Assembly (NCBI GenBank): GCA_963760535.1
Contig: CAVXEF010000026.1
Span: 18,416-82,415 of the forward strand
Reading direction: 5' to 3'
DNA length: 64,000 nucleotides
Source of the DNA: an uncultured Phycisphaerales bacterium
GTDB taxonomy: Bacteria > Planctomycetota > Phycisphaerae > Sedimentisphaerales > Anaerobacaceae
The translations under genes and the position numbers were made by a program. Below the pieces are notes generated by a model. It saw nothing but the letters and a program-made list of their open reading frames with translations. It did no database searches and was not told the origin of the DNA. Shown piece after piece: positions 4,206 to 64,000 of the stretch. Every line of letters begins with the position of its first letter. The first letter of the stretch is position 1.

Positions 4206-5501
4206 TTATAGCTCACAATTTTTTTGAAGTTTTCTATGTGTAAACTCCTTTGCGTTTTTGCCTGAGTAATCGGCAACTGTTTGGCCTGAGCCGAGGAGTT
4301 TCCATTTGTAAATAACAAGGCCTTCGAGGCCAACTGGGCCGCGAGCGTGAATTTTATTAGTGCTGATGCCGACTTCAGCGCCGAGGCCATAACGGAAACC
4401 GTCACTGAACCTTGTGCTGGCGTTCCAGAACACATTAGCTGAATCAACAAGATTCATAAATTTAGCTGCCTTTTGTTTATCAGCGGTAACAATGGTATCG
4501 GTATGGCGTGAGCTGTAACGATTTATATGCTCGATAGCCTCATCGACGCCGTCAACGACCTTTATCGAGATAATATAATCGAGATACTCGGCTGACCAAT
4601 CCTTCTCGGCAGCCGGCTTTACTTTTATTATCGAAGCTGTTTTTTTGCAGCCGCGAAGCTCGACGCCTTTCTCCTCAAGTGCAGCTTTTACCATCGGCAG
4701 AAATTTTTCGGCGATTTTCGCATCGACCAGCAAAGTTTCAGCGGCATTACAGACAGCAACGTACTGACACTTCGAATCAACGGTGATATTAACGGCCATA
4801 TTCAAATCGGCATCGCCATCCACATAGACGTGGCAAATTCCCTCGGCGTGACCCAGGACGGGTATATTGGTATTATCCATTATGTGGCGGACGAATTCGT
4901 TCGAGCCGCGAGGGATAATCAGGTCGATATATTCATCCAATTTCAGGATTTCCGCGACATCGGCGCGAGTTTCCATCAGTCCGAGCCAGCCCTTTGGGAA
5001 TGCCGGCTGATTCTGCAGCCGGCTGATAAATTCGGCCAATATTTTATTTGTGTGCTGGGCCTCGGAGCCGCCCTTGAGCAGGACGGCATTGCCGCTTTTC
5101 AAACATAACGTCGAAATCTGCACCAGCGCATCCGGTCTTGATTCAAAGACGACGCCAATTACCCCGATAGGACAACTGACTTTATAAAGTTCCAGCCCTT
5201 CGTCGAGTTCGGTTGCTGCCAGTATCTTGCCGACAGGGTCGTCGAGCTTAATCAGGCTCTCGATGCCTGCAATGCAGTCGGCGATTTTGCCTTCGTCAAA
5301 CTTTAGGCGTTTCAGCAATGGGGCGGCGAGACTGCCCTGGGCGACTGAGAGGTCTTTTTCGTTGGCTGAGACAATTTCATGGCTGTGCTTCTTCAAGGCT
5401 TTGGCTATCTCGGCCAAGGCGTGGTTTTTAACATCGGTTTTAACCGCAGCTAACTGAATTGCGGCTTTTTTGGCCTGTTTCGCTATATCAGCAACACCCA
5501 T
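4206..5501 (-). CDS. proA: glutamate-5-semialdehyde dehydrogenase (gamma-glutamyl phosphate reductase)
   Basis: 431 aa in a proA-proB tandem, with typical IPRGSNEFV, VCNAAETLLV and ASTRFSDG motifs. Confidence 0.9.
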   Translation of the reverse strand: MGVADIAKQAKKAAIQLAAVKTDVKNHALAEIAKALKKHSHEIVSANEKDLSVAQGSLAAPLLKRLKFDEGKIADCIAGIESLIKLDDPVGKILAATELDEGLELYKVSCPIGVIGVVFESRPDALVQISTLCLKSGNAVLLKGGSEAQHTNKILAEFISRLQNQPAFPKGWLGLMETRADVAEILKLDEYIDLIIPRGSNEFVRHIMDNTNIPVLGHAEGICHVYVDGDADLNMAVNITVDSKCQYVAVCNAAETLLVDAKIAEKFLPMVKAALEEKGVELRGCKKTASIIKVKPAAEKDWSAEYLDYIISIKVVDGVDEAIEHINRYSSRHTDTIVTADKQKAAKFMNLVDSANVFWNASTRFSDGFRYGLGAEVGISTNKIHARGPVGLEGLVIYKWKLLGSGQTVADYSGKNAKEFTHRKLQKNCEL

Positions 5502-6775: not shown

Positions 6776-7723
6776 GTGTATAGAAAACCGAACGTTATGT
6801 GCCAAACGCCAGAGGTTATGAATGAGACGGCATCGGAGCATATACCGGTTCTCGCGAAGACGTTGACCGAGCAGATAAACTTACCGCAGGAGGCGGTGAT
6901 GGTCGATGCGACCATAGGACACGGAGGTCACAGTTATCTGTTCGGTAAAACTTTGGGCCCTGGGGCGACCTTGCTGGGTTTAGACATAGATAAAAAGTCG
7001 GTCCACAGGGCCCAATCCATATTAAAAGGTCTTGCGTGCAGGGTTATTCTTATTCATTCGAACTTTTCCAAGATTGCTGACTGTCTGAACAACGAGGGCA
7101 TAAACGAAGCCGACTTTATCCTTGCAGACCTGGGCGTCTGCTCAGCACAATTAGCCGATGTCGAGATGGGAATGAGCTTTCAATCGGATATGCCCCTCGA
7201 TATGAGATTTGACAAAAGATTAAAGACGACTGCTGCCGATATAGTTAATAAAGCGGATGAAAAGTCCTTAGCGGATTTGATTTACAGGTTCAGCCAGGAG
7301 AGAGCTTCACGGAGAATCGCACGCTTCATCGTGCGGCACCGCCGCAGTGAGCGGATAACAACAACGTCTCAGTTAGCCCAGATAGTTTGCAGGGCACTGG
7401 CTCGACCGACACGAAAGCAATGGTCGAGGATTCACCCCGCGACAAGAACTTTTCAGGCCCTGAGAATCGCCGTCAATAATGAGCTGGAAAACCTTGAGGC
7501 GCTGCTTGCTTCGGCTCCGCAGATTCTGAAAAAAAATGGTTATATAGCAGTTATCAGCTATCACAGTCTGGAAGACAGAATCGTTAAAAACAACTTTAAG
7601 CAGAACGAAAAAGAAAGGGTCTACAAGGTTATCACGAAAAAACCGATTGTTCCTGAGCCGGAGGAAATCGCAGAAAATCGGCGAGCCAGAAGTGCAAAAT
7701 TGAGGATTGCACAGAAAATATAA
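6776..7723 (+). CDS. rsmH: 16S rRNA (cytosine1402-N4)-methyltransferase
   Basis: SEHIPVL...DATIGHGGHS...DLGVCSAQL...SYHSLEDRIVK motifs. The start is ambiguous (GTG 6776, ATG 6797 or ATG 6819). Confidence 0.9.
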   Translation: MYRKPNVMCQTPEVMNETASEHIPVLAKTLTEQINLPQEAVMVDATIGHGGHSYLFGKTLGPGATLLGLDIDKKSVHRAQSILKGLACRVILIHSNFSKIADCLNNEGINEADFILADLGVCSAQLADVEMGMSFQSDMPLDMRFDKRLKTTAADIVNKADEKSLADLIYRFSQERASRRIARFIVRHRRSERITTTSQLAQIVCRALARPTRKQWSRIHPATRTFQALRIAVNNELENLEALLASAPQILKKNGYIAVISYHSLEDRIVKNNFKQNEKERVYKVITKKPIVPEPEEIAENRRARSAKLRIAQKI

Positions 7724-7752
7724 CACAGAAAACAGAAAAAGGAGTTTCGGCC

Positions 7753-11613: not shown

Positions 11614-13775
11614 TTATTCCGAATGCATGGGTTTGCCTATGTATCCCGCTTCGATGCAGAACTGGATGATGTTACGCGCCAAAGGAGCGGCATCTCTGGG
11701 GCCTGATTGGCCGCCTTCAACAACTACAGCGATAGCAATACTGCGGCGCTGGGTATCTTCGGCAAAGCCTGCGAACCAGGCGCTGTCGGGCTTTTCCGTC
11801 GAGCCGGTTTTGCCATAAACCTTGACGGCCTGCCCGCCAAAGTTGGCGTAGGCGAACGGACTGTAAGCTGTTCCGCCCGGCTCATTGACCACAGCACTCA
11901 TACCATCACGGACAACCTCCAAAGTATGCGGTGAGATACCGAGGGCGATTTCGTCGCTCGTTGCTCGTCGCTCGTCGCTCGTATCATTAGGTGTAAGGAA
12001 AAGCCGAGGTAATTTATATACTCCACCCCTTGCGATTGCGGCAAAGGCGTTAGCGACCTGTAAAGCCGTAACGCGCAAATTTCCCTGGCCTATCCCGAAA
12101 TACCTCCTTTCGCCTTTCTCAAGAGATGGGACTTGCTCAAAACTCGTGACAGCGCCTTGCGGATTTACGTTTGAGATTACTCCTTGCGCCTGTCGTAATT
12201 CCCGTGGCCCGTGACCCGTGGCTCGTGACTCGTTTGAGTCATTTAGCCATGACGGCGAAAGTTGGATTTGGTGGCCGTAGCCGAATTTGAACAGCCATTG
12301 TTGCAAAACCTTCGGGTCAATTCTGTCGGCAAGACGAGAAAAATAGATATTACAACTACCCTTGATGGCGTTGCGAGCATTGTTCGGCCATTCGTTGTCG
12401 TGACAACTGCCAGGGTATCTAATATACAACCAGCAACTTGGCCAGCCCTGCGGCGCTTTTTGAGCGGGACAGCTGATAATCTCATCAGGAGTGATTTTGC
12501 CGTCTTCGAGGCCGGCGATAAGAATTACAGGTTTTATGGCCGAGCCGGGCGGATAGGATTTGTTCAGTGCCCGGTTTATCATAGGCGTATTGGGGGCACT
12601 GCTGATATTTCCGTAGTTATATCGCGCATAATTTAAATCGAAAGTCGGCGTTGAAACCATCGCCAAAATATCACCTTTTTCGACACTAATAACGACAGCC
12701 GATGTCGGCATTTTGCAGTTGGGATTGAGATTGCAGCCAAGAAGGTAATCTTCTATTTTCTTCTGCAGCTCGATATCGAGCGTAAGCGTAACATCTTTGC
12801 CGAGCTGAGTCTCGGTCTTACTTATGAGACTGCGGTCGAGGTCGTAAATTTCCTCGCCGCGTCGGCCTCGAAGAACGGTTTCACACACATATTCTGCGCC
12901 ATCCTCGCGTCCGCACACCTCATTATCCAAATATCTCGCCAATCTGTCGTCTGCGAAGAGCTTTTTATCCTCTTCCTGTGTGGCCGGCCCGACCCAGCCG
13001 ATTGTCTGAGCGGCAACACTGCCGTGAGGATAAACCCTCTCTGCTTCGGGAAGAATCTGAACACCGTCAGTGTGCATAAATTCAAACTGCGCAGTAAAGA
13101 CATCATCATCGGTTTTCAGCTCCAATAGTGGTTCGGCGGCGTCCATCTCTGCGATGTCATCGACCCTGCCGACAAGTAAAAGACGCTTCTCTTCGCTCGG
13201 AAATCTGGTTTCAAAATCCTCGATAACTTCCGAAAGAGGAATATGACTTATTCTGCCTTCATATTTTTGTATTATATTTGGGTCAGGGTCGTTTCTTCTC
13301 CAAGCAACAAATGTCCGCAGATTCCAGATATTGTCATTTATGCTTCTGATTTTGGTCTCGATATCCGCCCGCTCGAGGCCAAAATATGTACATTTATCGA
13401 TAATCTGCTGGATGTTTTCCAAGCCGGTTTCTATCGCCTCTTTGGCCTTGGCCTCGGCAGCAGCGTTAGACTTTTGCGCCGCTTTGAGCAGCTCGGCCCT
13501 TCGAACGCGCGGGTCGGCAAAACGGCTGAGCCGGTAGTTTATGTATAGTTGGAATCGCAGCTCATCAAACGCCAGAAGTCTGCCTTTATTGTCGAATATT
13601 CTGCCTCTGACGGTTTTTAACTGTCGAGACCGGCCGCCACTGAGTTTCAATTGTGCTATTTCGTCCTGAACGGACGAGCTGGGCAATAGCTGCATCTGCA
13701 CCAGCCGGAGCAGAAGAATCAGTAAAAACAGGACACTTGCGCCAACAAAGATTTTGATTCGCCTGCTTATACATC
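11614..13775 (-). CDS. mrdA: penicillin-binding protein 2 (elongasome transpeptidase); N-terminal frameshift near 13753
   Basis: 695-aa ORF with SAIKP (SxxK) and KTGST, lying downstream of mreBCD. The TM anchor IFVGASVLFLLILLLRLVQ lies in frame upstream of the tracked start. The only ATG (13775, MYKQANQ) is one frame off across an A/T run. Confidence 0.85.
11947..11988. repeat. heptanucleotide tandem array, unit TCGCTCG (4 good + 2 degenerate units), inside mrdA
   Basis: Units read directly: gatttcg TCGCTCG TTGCTCG TCGCTCG TCGCTCG tatcatt. Translated on the minus strand as TSDERRATSDE. Confidence 0.7.
12202..12236. repeat. heptanucleotide tandem array, unit CCGTGRC (4-5 units), inside mrdA
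   Basis: CCGTGGC CCGTGAC CCGTGGC TCGTGAC TCGTTTG. Translated on the minus strand as ESRATGHGPRE. Confidence 0.7.
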
Positions 13776-16555: not shown

Positions 16556-16610
16556 TTGGTAACTGGTAATTGGTGAATGGTAACCATTTAACCAGTTACC
16601 ATTTAACCAG
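16556..16610. repeat. hairpin-forming heptamer array (TGGTAAC units followed by complementary GTTACCA-type units)
   Basis: TGGTAAC TGGTAAT TGGTGAA TGGTAAC | CATTTAA CCAGTTA CCATTTA ACCAGTT. TGGTAACTGGT occurs in the left arm and in the reverse complement of the right arm. It starts directly after the stop codon at 16611-16613. Confidence 0.7.
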
Positions 16611-17516
16611 TTATAAATTAGTAGAAACACTATCACCAACCTTGGGCTGCTTGCTCACCAAGTCGAGCAAACCAACAGCTTTCTCGGCCTCGACGTCATA
16701 AATCAAAATATCACAAATGAACTCTTCACCACGGGTAACGTAAAACTTCATTCCTTCCTTTACACCATCCGCCGCGCCGACAGATATTTCAACCAGAGAA
16801 TTCGCCAAATCAACATCTGTCACCGAGCCTTTAAGGCTTATCTGCGCGGTGGCGGGTTCAGCAGGCCTAACTTTCGATATCTGCGGCGTTACCGGCACCG
16901 CGCCGACAACAGTCTTACCTGCCGGCCGAAGGAGATTATCCAACTTGGTCTGCAATTCGGTCTTCTCTTCGAGCAGACGCTTGTTATCTGTCTGCAACTG
17001 CTCTATTATGGCCATTTTTTCAACCAACTGTGCTGTAGTTTCACTTAGCTCTTTGCGATGTTTGATTTCTTCAGACTGGACACGCTTGAGCTCATCGAGC
17101 GTATTTTGCAACAGTGTCCCCTGCTTATCGTTGGTTGTGTAGAAATCCTTCGTTATACTTGTCCAGCTCTCCACCTGAGCAAGCAGCGACGCCCTTTCCC
17201 TATCAATATTCCCGATGTCGCCTTCCAGCTTGTCAATCTTCGCCTTAAGCGAGGCAATCTCACTTCTAAGTTTGTCTTCAAGCTGCTGCTTTTCACCGAT
17301 ATACTTATTTGCCTCGTCGGTCTTGGCCTTTAATTTTTTTTCAGAGGCGTCCCTGTCGGATTTTATATCGGCGTACTTTCCCCTGTAATTATCGGCGTTG
17401 GCAACGTAGGTTACGACAATACCGCAAAGAAATATAGAAGACAGTGTCAGCAGCACTATCAGAATCTTTGTAAGTGTGTTCAAAATCAGCTTCCTTTGCT
17501 TAATCAGGTTGGTCAT
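16611..17516 (-). CDS. bitopic coiled-coil protein (N-terminal TM, ~200-aa coiled coil, small C-terminal beta domain)
   Basis: TM segment ILIVLLTLSSIFLCGIVVTYV, then heptad-rich K/E/L sequence (KQQLEDKLRSEIASLKAKIDKLEGDIGNIDRERASLLAQVE...). First gene of the co-directional mreBCD-mrdA block. Confidence 0.6.
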   Translation of the reverse strand: MTNLIKQRKLILNTLTKILIVLLTLSSIFLCGIVVTYVANADNYRGKYADIKSDRDASEKKLKAKTDEANKYIGEKQQLEDKLRSEIASLKAKIDKLEGDIGNIDRERASLLAQVESWTSITKDFYTTNDKQGTLLQNTLDELKRVQSEEIKHRKELSETTAQLVEKMAIIEQLQTDNKRLLEEKTELQTKLDNLLRPAGKTVVGAVPVTPQISKVRPAEPATAQISLKGSVTDVDLANSLVEISVGAADGVKEGMKFYVTRGEEFICDILIYDVEAEKAVGLLDLVSKQPKVGDSVSTNL

Positions 17517-17719
17517 GAGGTCAAACCTATGAAACCCGAACCACTTAACCCACGAATTATACTGCGCCGTATGACAGTATGCAACCGAATAATCTAATTT
17601 CCAGTCCCAGACAGGTCAAGTTATTTTTGCGCTGCCATTCGCTATTTTTCGTGAAACTGTATTGTCCCGGACAAAATATCAACCCTAACCGACGTGGCTT
17701 CGCCGAAGGCGAGCAGCCA

Positions 17720-17801
17720 TCCAGCACCAATTGAACCCGAATTGAGAATGCCGTTCTCGTTCGTGGGCAGTATCTTTCACTGGCGGCCAATTGGTGCTGG
17801 A
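17720..17801. mobile_element. MITE-like palindromic element, copy A (80-82 bp, TIR TCCAGCACCAATTG)
   Basis: Perfect terminal inverted repeats CCAGCACCAATTG (17721-17733) and CAATTGGTGCTGG (17788-17800). Identical to copy B at 77 of 80 positions. It forms the last codons and the stop of the HEAT gene. Confidence 0.7.
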
Positions 17802-18918
17802 TTCTCACACAGCAGAACGGCCTTGGCAGCGGCGATACGAACCCGCTTGGACTGATTTTTAAGCAGCTTTGGCAAAAATTCGGTAACGGCAGCCGTCCGA
17901 ATTTGACCTATTGCCAGAGCCGTGAACATAGAAGATCGCTCAACACCTTCAGCGTCCATTCCCTCGTATGAGAATTTTTTCTGAAAACATCAAGCACCTC
18001 AAATTCTCCCTGGGAACTGCCGAGCGCACCGAGCTGTTCTGCCGCCGCCAGCCGAACCTCCAATACCTTATCATCCAACATTGTAATCAGGGCGTTCTTC
18101 GCCTGCTCCGTCCCAAGCGCGCCCATCGCCCTTATACCAATAACTCTGTCGTCTGCATACGCGCTTATCAGCATCGTCCACAGCTTCGGATATACCCTTT
18201 CATCTCTGAGCATTGCCATCGCTTCGGCAACCTGAAACCTGACTTTGTCATCCGAATCTTTGTCGCTTAAGGCCCAATCCAGCAGTTCCAACTGACCCCG
18301 CACCAATTGTTCAGAAGGGAAAGTTTCTGTTCTGGAGATTGATTTTGGTGCAATTGGTGCGGGGCCGCTTTTGCCAAGTATAAGGGCGGCGTTGGCACGA
18401 ACCGTATGGTCCTTGCTGATTATTGCCTTGCGAATGAGTCCAGCACCAATTGAACCCGAATCGAGAATGCCGTTCTCATTCGTGGGCAGTATCTTTCGCT
18501 GGCGGCCAATTGGTGCTGGATAGCCAAGCCTATACATCGCGTAAGCGGCGGCAATTCTGACATTTTCGTCGCGGTCTTTCAAAAGCTGACTTATCTGTTC
18601 TCTCGCAAAACGATACTGCATATCGCCGACAGCCAAAGCCGCTGCGAACCTGACCGGCACAAATTCATCAGTTAACAATCGTTTGACTTTCGGCATCAAT
18701 TCAGTTCGCCGCGTTGCCGCCACAACCTCAATCGCATTGACCCTGATGGAAGAGTCGGTGTCAGCCAAGGCATCCTCAATAATTCGAGCGGCTTCAGGCA
18801 CAAGGCTGTTAACAAGTCTGCTATCAGCCGATACAAGCCTGCTCTTTGAAGGCTCATTGCAACTCGGCAGAAATGCAAAAGCTAAAATTAAAAATGCAAA
18901 ACTGCGGAATTTTTTCAT
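17777..18918 (-). CDS. HEAT/PBS-lyase-repeat lipoprotein carrying three in-frame palindromic-element insertions (apparent frameshift near 17965)
   Basis: Lipobox MKKFRSFAFLILAFAFLPSC. Repeated ...VR..AA.AL... HEAT units. ORFs 17908..18918 and 17777..17959 join across a T6 run (...FEVLDVFRK|..EGMDAEGVERSSMFTALAIGQ...). Confidence 0.7.
18296..18364. mobile_element. MITE-like palindromic element, 69-bp variant (TIR CCCCGCACCAATTG)
   Basis: CCCCGCACCAATTG (18296-18309) and CAATTGGTGCGGGG (18351-18364) are perfect reverse complements. At 69 nt it equals 23 codons, translated as PAPIAPKSISRTETFPSEQLVRG. Confidence 0.6.
18439..18520. mobile_element. MITE-like palindromic element, copy B (80-82 bp, TIR TCCAGCACCAATTG)
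   Basis: Same TIRs as copy A with 3 substitutions in the 80-bp core. It adds exactly 27 codons (PAPIGRQRKILPTNENGILDSGSIGAG) between two HEAT helices. Confidence 0.7.
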
Positions 18919-21668: not shown

Positions 21669-22329
21669 TTACGGCTTTATTATCTTTTGCTCTTCGAAGA
21701 CTTTGCCGGAGAGATAATCGGTAAAGGTAACCTTCACCGTTAAGGGCTTGTCGAAGCTCTTGACTATATCGTTTACGTCGAAAGCCAACCTGTAATTGGA
21801 GGTTAGAACAGTGTCAAACCAGAGCTTTTTCAACTCATCCGGCTTGACGTGCCACTTGGCCAGCATCGACTTGTCGCCTTCTTTGCTGAGGTCCCAAAGC
21901 TGCACATCAACAGTCGCCGCCGGCTTTTACCTTGTTGTCCTCGGCATCGACAGGCTGTACGTAAACGATTAACTTTTCCTTTCTGCCGTCTTTATCCTTA
22001 TCGTAGAGGTTGGTATATCTGGTAAGTTTGATTTCTTTCAGGTCGTAGAGACTGTCGAATTTGTCCTGCGGAAGACCCGAAATGACCTGTACCTGTTTTT
22101 TTAATTGCTGGTTCTGCGAATCGGCCTGCTGAAGCTGATTCTGGAGCTGCCTGTTTTCCCGCTTTAATGCCCGGATTTGCTCCGCCGGCGTAAGTTTTCC
22201 GCTATCTCCACAGCCTGCGGCAAATAAGAGCACAAGTGCAAAAGTGCACAAGAAGGCGGACGACAGAAGACGGAAGACGGATGACGGACGACGGACGACG
22301 GATGACGGATGACCAATGCACTTATACAT
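21669..22329 (-). CDS. lipoprotein of unknown function (apparent frameshift near 21905)
   Basis: Lipobox LLFAAGC. ORFs 21907..22329 and 21669..21905 join as ...DNKVKAGG|.TVDVQLWDLSKEGDK. The ATG overlaps the clpP stop (TAATG). Confidence 0.5.
22252..22314. repeat. heptanucleotide tandem array, unit GAWGACG, 9 units = 63 nt, encoding the N-terminus of the lipoprotein
   Basis: GAAGGCG GACGACA GAAGACG GAAGACG GATGACG GACGACG GACGACG GATGACG GATGACC. The minus-strand translation GHPSSVVRRPSSVFRLLSSAF shows a 7-aa peptide periodicity. Confidence 0.75.
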
Positions 22330-22961
22330 TACTGCTCCTTATCCCTGTCTCTAACGATTTCCGGCGCTTTCTGCAGCACCCTGTCGGCCAGGCCGTAACT
22401 TATAGCATCTTTTGCTTCCAGCCAGAGGTTTCGGTCGCAGTCCTTCTCAATTTTTTCGGCACTTTGGCCGGTATGTTTGGCCAATATCTCGTAGAGCCTG
22501 CTGCGCAGCCGAAGTATTTCCTTCGCTTCGATGTCCAGGTCGGTGGCGGAGCCTTCGAGTATTCCTGCAATTTCCGGCTGATGCAGAAGCATCCTGCTGT
22601 TAGCCAGGAGAAATCGTTTTCCGCTTTTTCCGCCGGCCAGCAGCAGCGCCGCCATACTCGCCGCCTGCCCTACGCAATACGTTGCGACATCGCATCGTAA
22701 AAACTGCATCGTATCGTAAATCGCAAGACCCGCTGTGATCGAGCCGCCCGGCGAATTGATATAAAAATGGATATCCGTCTTGGTATCTTCGTTGCTTAAA
22801 AACAGCATCTGCGCAATGATTAAATTTGCGGTTGCATCATCGGTCGGCCCGCCAAGAAAGATGATTCTATCCTTGAGCAGCCTCGAATAAATATCGTACG
22901 CTCGCTCGGTTCGACCGCTTTTTTCAATCACTATCGGCACCAAATTCTGATTAACTATCAT
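22329..22961 (-). CDS. clpP: ATP-dependent Clp protease proteolytic subunit (paralogue 1)
   Basis: 210 aa with [28 protein letters not shown] and MLHQP motifs. Confidence 0.9.
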
Positions 22962-25126: not shown

Positions 25127-25289
25127 TCTCGTACTCCCGCACAACTTCACCTTATCCACTTAAGATAATAAACAAAAATGGCGTCGGGGCAACTTATTTT
25201 TCCCTTAGCCAGATTTTCGTGATTGCGAAACGCATCGGCGACCAACGCCAAACTATCGCTTAGCCGGTAACTCACCGATACTATAGTTT

Positions 25290-25366
25290 GTTCATAGTTC
25301 GTTGTTCATTGTTCATTGTTCATAGTTTGTTGTCGATGAACCCCCAACAATAAACTATGAACTCAC
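25290..25366. repeat. hairpin-forming heptamer array (GTTCATW units, then complementary AACnnnn units) abutting tRNA-Gly
   Basis: GTTCATA GTTCGTT GTTCATT GTTCATT GTTCATA GTTTGTT GTCGATG | AACCCCC AACAATA AACTATG AACTCAC. GTTCATAGTTT (25318-25328) pairs perfectly with AAACTATGAAC (25352-25362). Confidence 0.7.
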
Positions 25367-25368
25367 AG

Positions 25369-25440
25369 AGCGGGTGATGAGATTCGAACTCACGACATTC
25401 ACGTTGGCAACGTGACGCTCTACCACTGAGCTACACCCGC
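25369..25440 (-). tRNA. tRNA-Gly (anticodon GCC)
   Basis: Reverse complement GCGGGTGTAGCTCAGTGGTAGAGCGTCACGTTGCCAACGTGAATGTCGTGAGTTCGAATCTCATCACCCGCT folds as a cloverleaf with anticodon loop TTGCCAA. Confidence 0.85.
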
Positions 25441-35400: not shown

Positions 35401-37058
35401 AGCTGCCGGGTCATAAAGTTACAGAAGAAATCGCCAGACTCCGACATTCGACTATCGGAGTAACTCTGATATCGCCTCCGCCTCATCATGATATATATTC
35501 GATTGAGGACCTGGCACAGCTTATATATGACCTCAAGTGCAGTAACCCGGAGGCAAAAGTTTCGGTTAAGCTTGTTGCCGAAGTTGGAGTTGGTGCGATT
35601 GCAGCCGGTGTCGCCAAGGGGAATGCAGATGAAGTGCTTATCAGCGGGCACGATGGCGGAACCGGTGCCAGTCCTCTGTCCTCAATAAAACACACCGGCT
35701 GTCCCTGGGAACTTGGTCTGGCTGAGACCCAGCAGGTTCTGGTGATGAACAACTTAAGGGGCCGTATCCGGGTTCAGGTAGACGGCCAAATCAAGACCGG
35801 AAGAGACGTCGTTGTTGCTGCATTGCTGGGAGCTGATAGATTTGGCTTCGGCACGGCTGCTCTGGTAGCGCTTGGCTGCACACTACTTCGCAAGTGCCAC
35901 GAAGGGGCTTGTCCTTTTGGAATCGGCACCCAGGACCCGCAGCTGCGAATGCGATTTGCAGGAAAACCCGAGTATGTTGAAAGATTTATGTATTTTGTGG
36001 CTGAGGAAGTACGACAGATTATGTCACAGCTCGGCTTCAGAAAATTTGAAGATATGGTTGGCAGAGTAGACAGACTGAAGACCAGCACCGCAATCAATCA
36101 CTGGAAGGCAAAAGGCCTGGATTTCTCCGCGATTTTCCACCAGCCTGATGGCTTGGATGGGAAAGCGACAAGAGCAGTAAATCCACAGGCAAACAAACTC
36201 AATGACCATCTTGATTGGCAACTCATCGAGAAAGCCAAACCAGCGATTGAACAGGCCAAACATACTGTTATAGAAGTGCCGATTCGTAACACAGACCGAA
36301 CAGTTGGGGCGATTTTGAGTAATAAAATAGTAAAGAAACACGGCGAAAAAGGGTTACCCGATAACACGCTGGAAATTACCCTGCACGGCTCTGCGGGCCA
36401 AAGCTTCGGTGCCTTTCTTGCGCCTGGCGTGACTTTGAAACTGGTCGGTGACAGCAACGACTATCTGGGCAAGGGTCTTTCCGGGGGACGAATTGTTGTC
36501 AGGACGCCGGAAGGTTCACCGTTTATGAGCCACGAAAATATTATCGTGGGCAATACCGTGCTTTATGGTGCCACATCCGGTGAGGTTTTTATCAATGGGG
36601 TGGCTGGTGAAAGATTTTGTGTGCGAAACAGCGGGGTAACTGCCGTTGTCGAAGGCGTCGGCGACCATGGCTGTGAGTATATGACAGGCGGATTGGTTGT
36701 GGTCCTCGGGAAGACCGGATGTAACTTCGCGGCGGGCATGAGCGGCGGCCTCGCTTATGTGCTCGACGAGGCACAGCTATTTGATACGATGTGTAACCTT
36801 GATATGGTCGAGTTGGAAAGCGTTTGGAAAGAAGAGGACAAAAATCTGCTGTATGAGCTTATCCAGCAGCATCTCAGATGGACCGGCAGCGCACGTGCAC
36901 AAAGTATTCTGGATGCGTGGCTGGATATAGTCGGCAAATTTGTAAAGGTTGTCCCCATAGATTACCGCAAGGCATTAGAGAAAATGCGAACTGCCCAGCA
37001 GCAGCGAGATACTGAGACGATACCGGCAACAGAAGAGGTGTTTTCATGGGTGAAATAA
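32492..37058 (+). CDS. gltB: glutamate synthase large subunit (apparent frameshift near 33060)
   Basis: N-terminal amidotransferase EHDGCGIGAVV...TGDGAGILFQIP joins ...EDFYVP|SLSCRTICYKGM...HQRYSTNTFPNW..HNGEINTL. FMN and GXGXG domains follow. Confidence 0.9.
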
Positions 37059-38470
37059 AAGGTTTTCTAAAATACGGGCGTCAGGAAGTTGGACATCGGC
37101 CGGTCGAGGAAAGAATACATGATTTTGCCGAGTTCGACCTGCCGCTTACGCCGGAGCAAATCCACCAGCAGACGGCACGATGTATGGACTGCGGCATCCC
37201 GTTTTGCCACGGTGTCGGTTGTCCGCTGCAAAATAATATACCGGAACTAAATGAACTGGTGTACAAGGGTAAATGGCAACAGGCCTGTGAATTACTTCAT
37301 TTGAACAACAACTTTCCTGAAATTACAGGCCGGGTGTGTCCTGCACCGTGCGAAACCGCGTGTACGCTCTCCGTTAATGACGAACCTGTCCTTATCAGGC
37401 ATATTGAGCTCCAGATTGTCGAACGTGGATTTAAGGAAGGATGGATAAAGCCGGCACCGGCCAAACAGAAAACAGGTAGAAAAATCGCAGTGGTCGGCTC
37501 CGGCCCTGCCGGCCTGGCGGCCGCGCAGCAACTGGCACGAGCAGGCCATCAGGTAACAGTCTTTGAAAAAGATGAGCAGATAGGAGGCCTGTTGAGATAT
37601 GGTATTCCGGAATTTAAGCTTGAAAAACATATAATCGACCGTCGCCTCGAACAATTAAAAGGCGAAGGTGTGGAATTTCAGACAGGTGTTAACGCTGGGG
37701 AAGATACATCGGTTCGTTATTTGGAAAAGATGTTTGATTGTATCTGCCTGACAATGGGTGCTGAAACGCCACGAGACCTCGAAATACCCGGTCGAGGATA
37801 TGAGAATATTCTGTTTGCTACGGATTATTTGAAGACTCAAAACAAAATCTGCTGCGGCGAACCTGTAGACGAATCTTCGGTCATTACAGCAAAGAATAAA
37901 GTTGTGGTTGTAATAGGCGGCGGTGATACGGGAAGCGACTGTGTAGGAACAGCACGCAGAGAGGGTGCCAAAGAGATTTATCAGCTGGAGATTTTGCCGG
38001 AGCCGCCGCCAGCAAGACCGCCGGATACACCCTGGCCTATGTGGCCGCGAATTATGAGAACATCTTCTTCTCACGAAGAAGGCTGCCAGCGCCGATGGAG
38101 CGTAATGACCAAGAGATTCTCAGGTGTAGAAACCCGCGTAACATGCCTGCATTGCTGCCAGGTTAAGTGGATAAAGGAAAACGGGACGTGGAAACTGAAA
38201 GAGTTAGCAGGCTCCGATTTTACTCTTGAGGCCGACATAGTGCTCTTGGCGATGGGGTTTCTTCACGCAACACATAACGGGCTTATAAAAAAATTAGGTT
38301 TGAAACTTGATAAATCAGGCAATGTGGCAGTAGATAATTACCAGACAAGCGAATCAAGGGTATTTGCTGCTGGCGACACAATTAACGGGGCTTCATTGGT
38401 TGTTCGAGCCATCGACAGCGGACGCAAAGCAGCTGCCGCCATTGATGCCTGGTTAAAACCACAGTTTTGA
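37046..38470 (+). CDS. gltD: glutamate synthase small subunit (NADPH)
   Basis: 474 aa with CMDCGIPFC, Fe-S cysteines and VVGSGPAGLAAAQQLARAGH. It overlaps the gltB stop by 13 nt. Confidence 0.9.
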   Translation: MGEIKGFLKYGRQEVGHRPVEERIHDFAEFDLPLTPEQIHQQTARCMDCGIPFCHGVGCPLQNNIPELNELVYKGKWQQACELLHLNNNFPEITGRVCPAPCETACTLSVNDEPVLIRHIELQIVERGFKEGWIKPAPAKQKTGRKIAVVGSGPAGLAAAQQLARAGHQVTVFEKDEQIGGLLRYGIPEFKLEKHIIDRRLEQLKGEGVEFQTGVNAGEDTSVRYLEKMFDCICLTMGAETPRDLEIPGRGYENILFATDYLKTQNKICCGEPVDESSVITAKNKVVVVIGGGDTGSDCVGTARREGAKEIYQLEILPEPPPARPPDTPWPMWPRIMRTSSSHEEGCQRRWSVMTKRFSGVETRVTCLHCCQVKWIKENGTWKLKELAGSDFTLEADIVLLAMGFLHATHNGLIKKLGLKLDKSGNVAVDNYQTSESRVFAAGDTINGASLVVRAIDSGRKAAAAIDAWLKPQF

Positions 38471-38498
38471 GTTTTTAGTTTTAGGTTTTCAGTTTCTT
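38464..38498. repeat. heptanucleotide array GTTTTNN x5 filling the gltD-nadE spacer
   Basis: GTTTTGA (contains the gltD TGA stop) GTTTTTA GTTTTAG GTTTTCA GTTTCTT, followed directly by the nadE ATG at 38499. Confidence 0.6.
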
Positions 38499-40186
38499 AT
38501 GCGAATAGCACTGGCACAATTTGACGCGTCGGTCGGTAATATCAAAGGTAATATCGGGAAAATGGAAAAGCTAAGCGCCAAAGCGTACGACTTAGGTGCT
38601 GACATTGTGGTTTTTCCCGAAATGTCGGTGTGCGGTTATCCTCCGGAAGACCTGTTGTTTAAAAAACATTTTCTGGAAGACAACCGCTTGGCGGTGGAAC
38701 GCCTGGCACAAAAGGCCAGTCGTTTGGGGTCTGGGGTCAGGGGTCTGGAGTCTGGGATTACTGTCGTAGCTGGTTTTGCAGAGATAAATGACAAGGGCTG
38801 CTTCAATTCACTTGCTGTATTGCAAGGCGGCAAGATTGCGAGGATTTATCGAAAAAGCATTTTACCTAATTATGGGGTGTTCGACGAAAGGCGATATTTT
38901 CGCCCGGGGACAGAAGCGGTACGAATCACAATAAAAGATATGGCTGTGGTGTTTGCAATCTGTGAAGATATATGGCGTCTGAAGTGGCTGGACAGTTTCC
39001 TTGGAGAAATACCACGGATAGACATAATCATAAATATATCCGCGTCTCCCTTTCACATAGGCAAAATCAGCCAGCGTGAAGAAATTCTCCGCCAATGCGC
39101 AAAGCATTTTAACTGTGCCGTTGCCTATTGCAATTTGGTCGGCGGTCAGGATGAACTTGTTTTTGACGGCCGAAGCATGTTTGTGGATTCATCCGGCAAC
39201 GTTGTTTGCGTAGCTGCGGCGTTTGCAGAAGATATGCTGCTGGCAGATTTAGTAGCAGCGGAGAACGTCTGTCGTCTGTTGCCGGTCGTCGGTCGTCGGT
39301 CGACGAGAGACGAGGGACGAGGGACGAGAGACGAGATTGCCGAGGTTTATAATGCACTGATTCTTGGGGTTAAAGACTACGTACGAAAGAACAATTTTTC
39401 CAAAGTTGTAATCGGCCTCAGTGGTGGAATAGATTCATCTCTTACGGCGGCAATTGCCGCAGGTGCGCTGGGGGCAAAAAATGTCGTCGGCGTAACTATG
39501 CCGTCACAATTTAACAGTCCGGATACTATCAGAGATGCACAAACACTGGCAGACAATCTTGATATTGAGTTTCACGTTTTGCCAATCAAGGCAACGCTGG
39601 AGCAATTTAACGAAGCTGCTGACAAAAATGCCGGGATGGGACAAAACGGGTATAGCCTATGAAAATCTGCAGGCAAGAATTCGAGGATGTATACTTATGT
39701 CTTTGAGCAACCGATACGGTTATCTTGTTTTGACCACCAGCAACAAGAGCGAAACCGCTGTCGGATATGCCACCCTGTATGGTGACACAGCGGGTGGCTT
39801 TGCGGTTTTGAAAGACGTGCCCAAGACAATGGTTTATCAATTGGCTGAGTATGTAAATAAGGTCCATCACGGAGTTATCCCCGCTACGGTAATACAACGA
39901 CCTCCGAGTGCTGAACTAAAGGAAAACCAAAAGGATACAGATTCCCTTCCGGAGTATGACATCCTCGACCGCGTACTTCGTAGTTATGTGGAAGAAGACA
40001 AAGGGGTTTCTGAGTATGGTCAAGGAAGGCTTACCCAAGAATATCGTTAATAAGGTCGTCAGTATGGTGGACCGGAATGAATACAAAAGGAGACAATCTC
40101 CACCGGGGATTAAAATCACTCCGAAAGCATTTGGTAAAGACAGGCGAATGCCCATAACCAACCTCTATACTTCCGAAAGACCTTAG
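38499..40186 (+). CDS. nadE: glutamine-dependent NAD+ synthetase (two apparent frameshifts, two in-frame heptamer arrays)
   Basis: CN-hydrolase domain (MRIALAQ...[12 protein letters not shown]) plus synthetase domain ([24 protein letters not shown]). Joins occur near 39635 (..AGMG|[13 protein letters not shown]) and near 40011 (..DKGVSE|[22 protein letters not shown]). Confidence 0.85.
38719..38760. repeat. heptanucleotide tandem array, unit GGGGTCT (4 good + 2 degenerate units = 42 nt), inside nadE
   Basis: gtcgttt GGGGTCT GGGGTCA GGGGTCT GGAGTCT gggatta. Translated as [14 protein letters not shown]. Confidence 0.7.
39267..39336. repeat. bipartite heptanucleotide array, 5 x GTCNGTY then 5 x GACGAGR, inside nadE
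   Basis: GTCTGTC GTCTGTT GCCGGTC GTCGGTC GTCGGTC | GACGAGA GACGAGG GACGAGG GACGAGA GACGAGA. The arms are complementary at 5 of 7 positions per unit and are centred on GTCGAC. Translated as [23 protein letters not shown]. Confidence 0.8.
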
Positions 40187-62843: not shown

Positions 62844-64000
62844 TACTTGTACTTGATGACCGCGTGGTAACTTTGCAGTGATCTTATGGGGCTGTCGCTA
62901 TTTCGGCGAGCAGCAATTCCTTTGACGGCGGCGGCAGCAGCGCCGTCGTCGTTACGTACGGTATCTTGTACTTTATCGCCGCCTTGCGAATATATGAATC
63001 GTCGTATTTGCTCATCTTGCCCGCAGGCGTATTCACAATCAATTGAATCTCGCCGTTCTTTATGCAGTCCATCACATTGGGCCTGCCTTCGTGCATTTTC
63101 AAAACCATCTCCGATTTGATGCCATTTTGTTCAAGCAGGCGATGTGTTCCCTCGGTCGCCTTGATTTTGAAACTGAGTTTCGCAAACTCCTTTGCCGGCC
63201 GGATAATGTCTTTCTTGTCGGGGTCGGCTACGGTTATAAGCACTGTTCCTTCCGAAGGCAGACGTAGTTGTGTAGCCTCCTGCGCCTTGTAATACGCCAG
63301 TTCAAACGAATCCGCCAGCCCTAATACCTCGCCGGTCGAGCGCATCTCAGGTCCCAAAACCGGGTCAACTTCAGGGAACATATTGAAGGGGAACACCGAC
63401 TCTTTAACGCCAAAGTGCGGGATTTGTCTGTGCTTGAGATTTAAGTCTTTCAGCTTTTTGCCCAACATAACCTGGGTCGCTACTCTCGCCATCGAAAGTC
63501 CGCAGACCTTCGACACGATGGGAACGGTCCTCGATGCCCGCGGGTTTGCTTCCAGCACATAAACCTTGTCGTTGCATATCGCATACTGGATATTCATTAA
63601 CCCGACGACGTTTAACTTTATTGCAATTTTCTTTGTGTACTCGGCTATCGTATCCAAGTGCTTCTTCGGTATGCTCACGGGAGGTATCACGCAGGCCGAA
63701 TCGCCTGAGTGAATCCCTGCAAGCTCGATATGCTCCATTATCGCCGGTATAAAGGCGTCGGTGCCATCAGATATCGCGTCGGCCTCTGTCTCAGTCGCAT
63801 TTTCCAGAAATTTATCTATAAGTATTGGTCTTTCGGGCGTAACATCCACCGCCGCCGCAACGTATTCTTTAAGCATCTCCTCATCGTGCACCACTTCCAT
63901 ACCCCGACCGCCCAATACGTACGACGGCCTGACAATCAGCGGATAGCCGATTTTCTTGGCCAGCGCCAACGCGTCCTCAAGGTTGCTTGCCATTCCCGCC
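62844..64000 (-). CDS. carB: second carbamoyl-phosphate synthase large-subunit paralogue, C-terminal half (5' end outside window; apparent frameshift near 62940)
   Basis: ORF 62884..63993 remains open to the window edge. After YVTTT the alternative frame gives the canonical end AAAAAAVKGIAARRNSDSPIRSLQSYHAVIKYK*, with its stop at 62846-62844. Confidence 0.85.

Follow-up and report, generated by a model that had tools for sequence, protein, structure and literature searches.

The short tandemly repeated repetitive (STRR) sequences of cyanobacteria, reportedly described by Mazel in 1990, are said to be heptanucleotide repeats. Heptanucleotides are the most abundant long simple-sequence repeats (SSRs) in many bacteria, and a proposed cause is slipping of the 7-nt stretch bound by the polymerase (Mrazek 2007, as summarized in PMC4679880). 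In Xanthomonas, 70-75 pairs of convergent heptamer arrays capable of forming stem-loops have been reported, and in Nostoc 32% of the heptamer arrays are intragenic (Rehm 2015, PMC4692102). Coding copies of the TAACTGA repeat of Beggiatoaceae lie mainly at the protein periphery, with insertions surviving where they are tolerated (MacGregor 2015, PMC4679880), and the Rickettsia palindromic elements (RPEs) are palindromic DNA sitting in frame in unrelated housekeeping genes, translated and compatible with the protein fold (PMC10969869). Here we describe two heptamer arrays within nadE, the gene for glutamine-dependent NAD+ synthetase, from an uncultured bacterium of the order Sedimentisphaerales (Planctomycetota), on contig CAVXEF010000026.1 of assembly GCA_963760535.1. 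The analysed stretch, hereafter the window, is 64 kb long and is the sole part of this genome covered by our array counts. Both arrays are real and lineage-specific, and they are an instance of an order-wide tolerance of in-frame loop repeats rather than a device of nadE. The features are listed in Table 1, and related loci used for comparison carry labels beginning with L.

Table 1. Positions of nadE, its two heptamer arrays and further array-bearing features of the window.
Feature	Position	Strand	Description
nadE	38499-40186	+	Glutamine-dependent NAD+ synthetase; CN-hydrolase and NAD-synthase domains; PDB matches
Array 1	38719-38760	+	GGGGTCT-type heptamers; Tandem Repeats Finder (TRF) core 38725-38756; encodes A73-G86
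Array 2, left arm	39267-39301	+	GTCTGTC GTCTGTT GCCGGTC GTCGGTC GTCGGTC; encodes V257-S268
Array 2, right arm	39302-39336	+	GACGAGA GACGAGG GACGAGG GACGAGA GACGAGA; encodes T269-E279
AGTTTTN array	38462-38495	+	Intergenic; gives the last gltD codons and stop; ends 3 nt before the nadE ATG
PBP2 gene	11614-13701	-	Two in-frame heptamer arrays
PBP2 array	11951-11982	-	In-frame GACGAGC; transpeptidase-domain loop; encodes TSDERRATSDE
PBP2 second-loop array	12201-12233	-	In-frame CACGRGY; transpeptidase-domain loop; encodes NESRATGHGPRE
Bipartite hairpin	16556-16613		Intergenic; TGGTAAN x4 then TTACCAN x4; adjoins the stop of open reading frame (ORF) 16611-17516 (-)
Bipartite array	25288-25362		Intergenic; TTGTTCA and inverted partial copy; directly 3' of tRNA-Gly(gcc) 25368-25440 (-)

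The nadE product matched the PDB entries 3n05, 5kha and 4f4h with E values of 1e-58 to 1e-66, and Pfam PF00795 and PF02540 were found on its orthologues (86% identity, 548 aa). It has the N-terminal CN-hydrolase and C-terminal NAD-synthase domains of a two-domain NadE with their conserved motifs, and the orthologue alignment showed that the invariant E41, K119 and C155 and the SGGxDS motif are kept. For both NadE and PBP2 of the window, the top matches are proteins from metagenome-assembled genomes assigned to the Sedimentisphaerales.

Array 1 is composed, from its first base, of GTCGTTT, GGGGTCT, GGGGTCA, GGGGTCT, GGAGTCT and GGGATTA, that is, three to four good units with two degenerate units at the edges, and TRF resolved its core as 4.6 copies of TGGGGTC with 84% matches. 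Translated in the NadE frame, it yields 14 residues where relatives have C-P-D. The first-pass annotation of this DNA had placed a GGGGTCT-type array here, in frame and within the CN-hydrolase domain, which TRF and the alignment bore out, while its figure of 13 added residues proved too high, the net gain being 33 nt or 11 aa. In an AlphaFold2 model of NadE, built from a 34-sequence alignment with a mean predicted local distance difference test (pLDDT) score of 76, the site is a coil between helix 56-75 and strand 88-97, with pLDDT <50 at residues 80-84. Between the helix (...LAQK) and the ITVVAGF strand, 32 of the 33 aligned orthologues and approximately 25 further loci carry three residues, typically C-P-D (pattern C/R/S-P/S/T/F-x), the exception being P0075 with a different insert of approximately 8 residues. 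In the closest DNA relatives, L083, L001 and L085, array 1 is absent, leaving a clean 33-nt gap between flanks of ~90% identity; the NadE proteins of these relatives are 84% (L083) and 83% (L001 and L085, by tblastn; 86% over the full-length protein) identical to that of the window. Array 1 is thus a lineage-specific loop insertion without counterpart in the closest relatives, as the first-pass annotation had supposed. Its unit on the reverse strand, CCCCAGA, is one base from the cyanobacterial STRR1 unit CCCCAGT, and its G-richness recalls the GGGAATC/GGGGAYT repeats of Xanthomonas and Nostoc, which are likewise heptamers in arrays of typically ~4 units. When array 1 was folded in search of a hairpin, none was significant (z -0.14).

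Array 2 consists of two arms, the right being an imperfect reverse complement of the left, with GTCGAC at the junction. It had been described as five GTCNGTY units followed by five GACGAGR units, and both the positions and the counts held, although the third left-arm unit, GCCGGTC, departs from this formula. TRF reported 5.3 copies at 39266-39302 (83% matches) and 5.0 copies at 39302-39336 (92%), and the arms at 39266-39298 and 39301-39333, each of 33 nt, are 73% complementary. As RNA, the segment folded into a single hairpin of -40.9 kcal/mol (z -3.43; none of 200 shuffles was as stable), and as DNA it reached -19.8 kcal/mol (z -1.9). In the hairpin, each heptad contributes ~5 bp, with 2x2 internal loops in between, in agreement with the earlier claim that the arms pair at 5 of 7 positions per unit. 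Array 2 is read in frame with both NadE domains, and the translations first proposed for the two arrays were correct. In the structural model, residues 257-262 form a predicted short strand and residues 263-278 a coil before helix 279-297, with pLDDT <50 at residues 267-276.

With adjacent complementary units in opposite orientation that can form a stem-loop, array 2 has the make-up of the convergent heptamer pairs of Xanthomonas; those pairs, however, are not reported in PMC4692102 as translated parts of conserved enzymes. It also resembles the RPEs as palindromic DNA translated within a housekeeping protein, in frame in a conserved gene and at a structurally tolerant site. RPEs, in contrast, are families of ~150 bp with conserved sequence, whereas array 2 is made of 7-nt units without fixed termini or length. 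We looked for a further copy of array 2 in the window, as for an RPE or a miniature inverted-repeat transposable element (MITE), and found only its 7-nt unit family recurring; neither terminal repeats nor target-site duplications were found at its borders. The same bipartite architecture was present in two intergenic features, as had been noted on first reading: the bipartite hairpin folded as RNA to -24.7 kcal/mol (z -4.05; no shuffle of 150 matched its stability), and the bipartite array beside tRNA-Gly gave z -4.1 and -3.9 on its two strands. Neither of these hairpins is followed by a T-run. Imperfect hairpins of this kind are missed by an inverted-repeat scan with an 8-nt seed, and an Rfam scan returned three tRNAs only, with no match on the arrays.

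The NadE linker is bounded by the conserved ...EDMLLADL and EVYNAL, and array 2 lies between them with sharp borders against flanks of ~90% identity, being absent from L001, L083 and L085. The ends of the L083 linker resemble those of the window (VAAEN...IA), and inside them 66 nt of unrelated sequence stand in place of the 69 nt of array 2. Since the linker measures 29-30 aa in most relatives whatever its sequence, which is not conserved, array 2 replaced the linker rather than lengthening it. The first-pass annotation was therefore right about the linker site and the reading frame, and what it took for an insertion is a substitution with a net change of +1 residue. A descent of array 2 from the local linker gained no support when homology was sought: the sole shared 7-mer, GTTGCCG, is 10 nt out of register and fits chance. 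Other lineages have filled the same linker differently. In L003, L005, L089 and L101 it holds TTCGAAN arrays encoding KNSKFKIRNSKF and is shortened to 22 aa, and in L168 (63% aa identity) it holds an independent bipartite array of CGTCGTG x4.3 followed by AATACGC x4.9 (L168 942-1013), whose hairpin (-36 kcal/mol, z -3.84) also shows 5 bp and a 2x2 loop per heptad.

Arrays of this period are abundant well beyond nadE. In the window, 13 TRF rows had period 7, whereas 30 dinucleotide-preserving shuffles averaged 0.87 and never exceeded 4 (~15-fold over chance); a further 7 rows had period 14 or 21. Under a stricter score, period 7 accounted for 23 of 48 arrays in Sedimentisphaerales loci (542 kb; 4.25 per 100 kb) and for 2 of 407 in loci of other phyla (1.53 Mb; 0.13 per 100 kb), the latter being ~30-fold less dense. 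Head-to-tail 7-nt units, a period-7 excess and variation between relatives, the features of heptanucleotide SSRs and STRR sequences, were thus all found. Like those repeats, the arrays comprise several unrelated units per genome, are mostly intergenic, vary in copy number and have a patchy phylogenetic distribution. They differ in that Planctomycetota are not among the phyla covered in PMC4679880 and PMC4692102, and in that the same loops of housekeeping proteins are repeatedly occupied in frame, with the unit differing per lineage.

The clearest case of such repeated occupancy is PBP2. Its orthologues, from independent assemblies, also have heptamer arrays in both loops, but the units differ and the copies number 4.6-17.3: ATCGAGA x5.7 (L163) and x9 (L167), TCGAGCA x17.3 (L167), a perfect AATTTCG x5.3 (L164), and ACGAGCG x4.6-4.7 (L164, L165) and x13.7 (L166). 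The 13.7-copy array of L166 is the counterpart of the first PBP2 array of the window. In the loop of the second PBP2 array of the window, the orthologues hold ATCGAGA (L163, L167) or AATTTCG x5.3 (L164). The gap between 4.6 and 13.7 copies amounts to 63 nt, or nine units, and keeps the frame. At the protein level, runs with a 7-residue period (residue i identical to residue i+7) numbered 5 in the 120 best NadE matches and 39 in the 120 best PBP2 matches, compared with 0-1 runs for periods of 5, 6, 8 and 9 residues; nine of the 39 PBP2 runs are an N-terminal motif, G[KR]ILDRxG[KR]IL, and are probably not array-encoded. Bipartite arrays occur in other proteins and spacers of the order as well. 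L166 has GATTTTC and GAAAATC as an inverted pair in the mreC-mreD spacer and a bipartite array in PBP2 loop A with a hairpin of -41 kcal/mol (L166 1217-1269 and 3342-3400), and the HEAT-repeat protein of L169 contains a perfect AAAATCG x5.1 together with a CGTCGCT/AGCGACG hairpin (2132-2167, 2580-2652).

Gain and loss of arrays are evidently fast. L085 has the AGTTTTN array between gltD and nadE (4964-4997), matching the window at 33 of 34 nt, whereas L001, although 95-97% identical to L085 over most of the region, lacks it, as does L083. The conservation of this array was indistinguishable from the local 93% identity of its flanks, and no hairpins were found in the AT-rich intergenic arrays (z up to +1.4). 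Arrays 3-14 nt before start codons were seen in the window (the gltD-nadE array and 7711-7739), in L164 (4638-4670) and in L085 (the gltD-nadE array). The two in the window, lying directly upstream of start codons, recall the TAACTGA repeat of Beggiatoaceae. That repeat is a single unit genome-wide with stops in all three frames of one strand, whereas here many units occur, and those in coding sequence lack stops and sit inside domains or linkers. Two further repeats may be noted. The unit ACAGAAA recurs upstream of PBP2 in L163, and the longest heptamer array of the window lies at 22226-22313, downstream of ORF 22329-22961 (-), where AAGTGCAC x3.4 (period 8) is followed by GAAGACG/GACGACG/GATGACG x8.9.

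We consider it most probable, at roughly 58%, that the nadE arrays are heptanucleotide SSRs of the STRR class that arose by slippage and inverted duplication, in an order where 7-nt tandem arrays form and turn over with unusual frequency. Replication slippage would expand a 7-nt seed, and strand switching within the array or fold-back copying might at times add an inverted half, giving a bipartite palindrome. The G/G mismatch that recurs in every heptad of array 2 could be explained by a separate homogenization of each arm, which would spread one mismatch to all heptads. The positions of the coding arrays and the step size of their length differences show that coding arrays are filtered. They would survive only where the protein tolerates a hydrophilic or flexible peptide, here a surface loop and an interdomain linker, only with units that are stop-free in all three frames, and only when the net length change is a multiple of 3. 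Where the length of a linker matters, expansion of the array would be offset by loss of adjoining unique sequence; array 1 would then be a simple gain of 33 nt, and array 2 would have overwritten a linker of conserved length. We infer slippage and template switching as the origin and no dedicated function in NadE.

Several results weigh against this explanation. Among 30 non-redundant arrays, 22 pairs of units were within one mismatch of each other, counting any rotation and either strand, compared with 9.0 ± 3.0 for letter-permuted units (0 of 500 permutations); a few of these pairs are orthologous, and the pair count was used in place of single-linkage clustering, which chained unrelated units. 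One family, CGTCGCT/AGCGACG, recurs in array 2 (both arms, in opposite orientations), in the PBP2 arrays and in the L169 HEAT-repeat protein, the right-arm unit of array 2 belonging to the same family as the first PBP2 array of Table 1. This family keeps one reading register, T-x-D-E-x-R-x (S-S-L-V-A-R on the other strand). Pure local slippage from arbitrary seeds does not predict such shared units, which would require selection on the peptides or copying between arrays. Furthermore, a PBP2 array is slightly better preserved than its gene against L164, at 28 of 33 nt compared with 68% identity (P = 0.025), although this weak signal was not significant against L165. Finally, hairpin-capable NadE linkers are found in at least four lineages, namely the window, L168, the L003 group and L001/L085/L102-L106, which could mean that structure is selected.

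The first of these results can also be read as copying from elsewhere. Array 2, and perhaps array 1, may have been copied from a dispersed, possibly mobile or template-copied CGTCGCT/AGCGACG hairpin family of RPE-like character instead of growing in place, a possible but unlikely origin. Consistent with it, each arm of array 2 differs from the PBP2 unit by at most one mismatch, the two arms being oppositely oriented, bipartite members exist in L166 PBP2 loop A and in the L169 HEAT-repeat protein, the similarity of units across non-orthologous sites exceeds that of the permuted controls, the replaced linker has no homology to array 2, and palindromic elements with fixed termini insert in frame in these same genomes, including the NadE linker of L001/L085/L102-L106. 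However, conserved termini, target-site duplication and fixed length were all sought for the heptamer family and not found, and unit sequence and copy number vary continuously among sites. Array 2 is, moreover, as long as the linker it replaced, for which a simple insertion does not account, and convergence under selection for stop-free hydrophilic units could itself give a shared vocabulary.

The palindromic element just mentioned is the closer analogue of RPEs in these genomes. It is 65-78 nt long with the termini C[CA]GCACCAATTG ... CAATTGGTG[CT]G and occurs in the window at 17722-17799, 18298-18362 and 18441-18518, and beyond it in L001 (10724-10803), L085 and L102-L106. Its termini gave 6 matches where 0.41 were expected, and its hairpins reach -37 to -41 kcal/mol. 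In ORF 17908-18918 (-), two copies lie in frame between HEAT repeats (PAPIG...IGAG) as insertions that the orthologues lack, and the termini span the entire NadE linker of L001/L085 (APHQLT...DWCG) and of L102-L106, the hairpin of the L001/L085 linker element being -43.8 kcal/mol. The third copy, at 17722-17799, sits in a displaced part of the HEAT-repeat protein: at ~17516-17950 (-) this protein ends early (...KNSHTREWTLKV...), while orthologues run ~60 conserved residues further, and the early end is probably another assembly frameshift.

Selection for a nucleic-acid element in nadE itself seems improbable. As an mRNA structure between the two domains, the hairpin could delay ribosomes and let the glutaminase domain fold first, or it could serve an RNase or RNA-binding protein as a target site; array 1, for its part, might form a G-quadruplex. 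The stability of the array 2 hairpin and its position exactly between the two domains fit such a role, as do the independent linker hairpins of L168 and L001/L085 and the pattern of 5 bp and a 2x2 loop per heptad common to both heptamer hairpins; in array 1, the sense strand offers three GGGG tracts, then GGAG, then a GGG tract after a 10-nt loop. Nevertheless, 12 of the 19 orthologue linkers that were folded (about two-thirds) had z > -1.5, with the closest relative, L083, at z +0.79. Thus nadE does not conserve a linker hairpin; these folds leave a conserved function for it unsupported and a lineage-specific one possible. Hairpin arrays of the same kind also lie in intergenic DNA and in unrelated proteins. 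As for the G-quadruplex, it was not the minimum-energy fold of array 1, ViennaRNA with G-quadruplex energies favouring a hairpin; in this, and in the lack of G-tracts in the units of array 2, nadE departs from the GGGAATC/GGGGAYT repeats of Xanthomonas and Nostoc.

A broader proposal draws on the relatedness of units across non-orthologous genes, the linker hairpins in at least four lineages and the slight excess conservation of one PBP2 array. It holds that the Sedimentisphaerales run an active, sequence-selective process beyond slippage that would write a limited vocabulary of heptamers, often as inverted pairs with 5 bp and a 2x2 loop in each heptad, into recurring hot spots including the loops and linkers of essential proteins, with the hairpins kept by selection, for instance as pause, processing or protein-binding sites; we regard this as a long shot.

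The state of the assembly bears on the two remaining alternatives. As assembled, nadE shifts frame twice, owing to one extra base at 39612 and another at 40016, so that its coding sequence occupies three frames, and its ORF ends at a stop at 39662. Alignment to L001 revealed six single-base insertions between 29.7 and 40.0 kb, in amt (29699, 29999, 30173), gltB (33066) and nadE (39612, 40016), each shifting the frame by +1 and at least five lying outside homopolymers, while 30173 adjoins a G run. Removal of the six bases restored full-length ORFs without stops, nadE then encoding 561 aa, and the corrected nadE had a ratio of nonsynonymous to synonymous substitution rates (dN/dS) of 0.136 against L001, within the 0.02-0.16 of neighbouring genes (dS ~0.35-0.5 for most genes, 0.88 for carA). 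Because removal restores stop-free ORFs under purifying selection, the insertions are probably sequencing, assembly or read errors, and we conclude that nadE is a working gene. That nadE is a decaying pseudogene with the arrays as part of its decay, as its ORF broken at two places and the likewise broken amt and gltB of the same nitrogen-metabolism cluster might suggest, is very improbable given the restored ORFs, the dN/dS, a pattern of +1 insertions outside homopolymers typical of assembly or long-read error, the frame kept by both arrays and the like arrays in intact orthologues from other assemblies.

Equally remote is the prospect that the arrays were produced by the assembly, through a collapsed, expanded or chimeric repeat, or that they switch a phase-variable nadE on and off. 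In favour of it, this assembly carries indel errors, one 7-nt unit more or less would put the gene out of frame, and a search of genome and metagenome contigs for a second contig of the same species found none (best matches 72-84% identical). Against it, many independent assemblies have equivalent arrays at the corresponding sites, both arrays leave the frame intact, arms of at most 5 units with 83-92% matches are a poor slippage substrate, and nadE has a housekeeping role, unlike surface or contingency genes. With phase-variable contingency loci nadE shares a repeat inside its ORF with a unit length not divisible by 3, so that a change of one unit shifts the frame; unlike those, it is a housekeeping gene, and its arrays are short and imperfect, which argues against frequent slippage. 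In view of the indel errors, the unit numbers of the two arrays are to be taken as not verified, but they are still correct modulo 3, since the frame holds on both sides.

The gene order around nadE, amt-glnB-glnA-gltB-gltD-nadE-carB-carA, is a conserved cluster syntenic with locus L001. Within it, gltB has at 36996-36998 one CAG more than L001 in a CAG run, an ordinary in-frame trinucleotide slip. A second carB-like sequence at 62947-63999 (-), 52% identical to CarB residues 690-1041, runs off the end of the window and may be a paralogous ATP-grasp carboxylase.

Collectively, the finding is solid and general, and its most likely mechanism is ordinary. The literature searched yielded no reports on Planctomycetes, Phycisphaerae or Sedimentisphaerales that dealt with heptamer or tandem repeats. 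What is new is the phylum, the occupation of the same conserved-enzyme loops in frame by different arrays, translated bipartite hairpins of the 5+2 type and a shared vocabulary of units. In practical terms, low-complexity inserts with a 7-residue period can mislead the alignment, domain annotation and structure prediction of proteins from metagenome-assembled genomes, and stable intragenic hairpins can cause errors of assembly and polishing. The Sedimentisphaerales offer a natural experiment on heptanucleotide repeats, the commonest long simple repeat of bacteria, in which loops of NadE, PBP2 and a HEAT-repeat protein carry differing arrays in differing copy numbers, always in frame. With this lineage one can measure the range of peptides and RNA structures that an essential enzyme accepts, date the gains and losses of arrays, and test slippage against copying between arrays.

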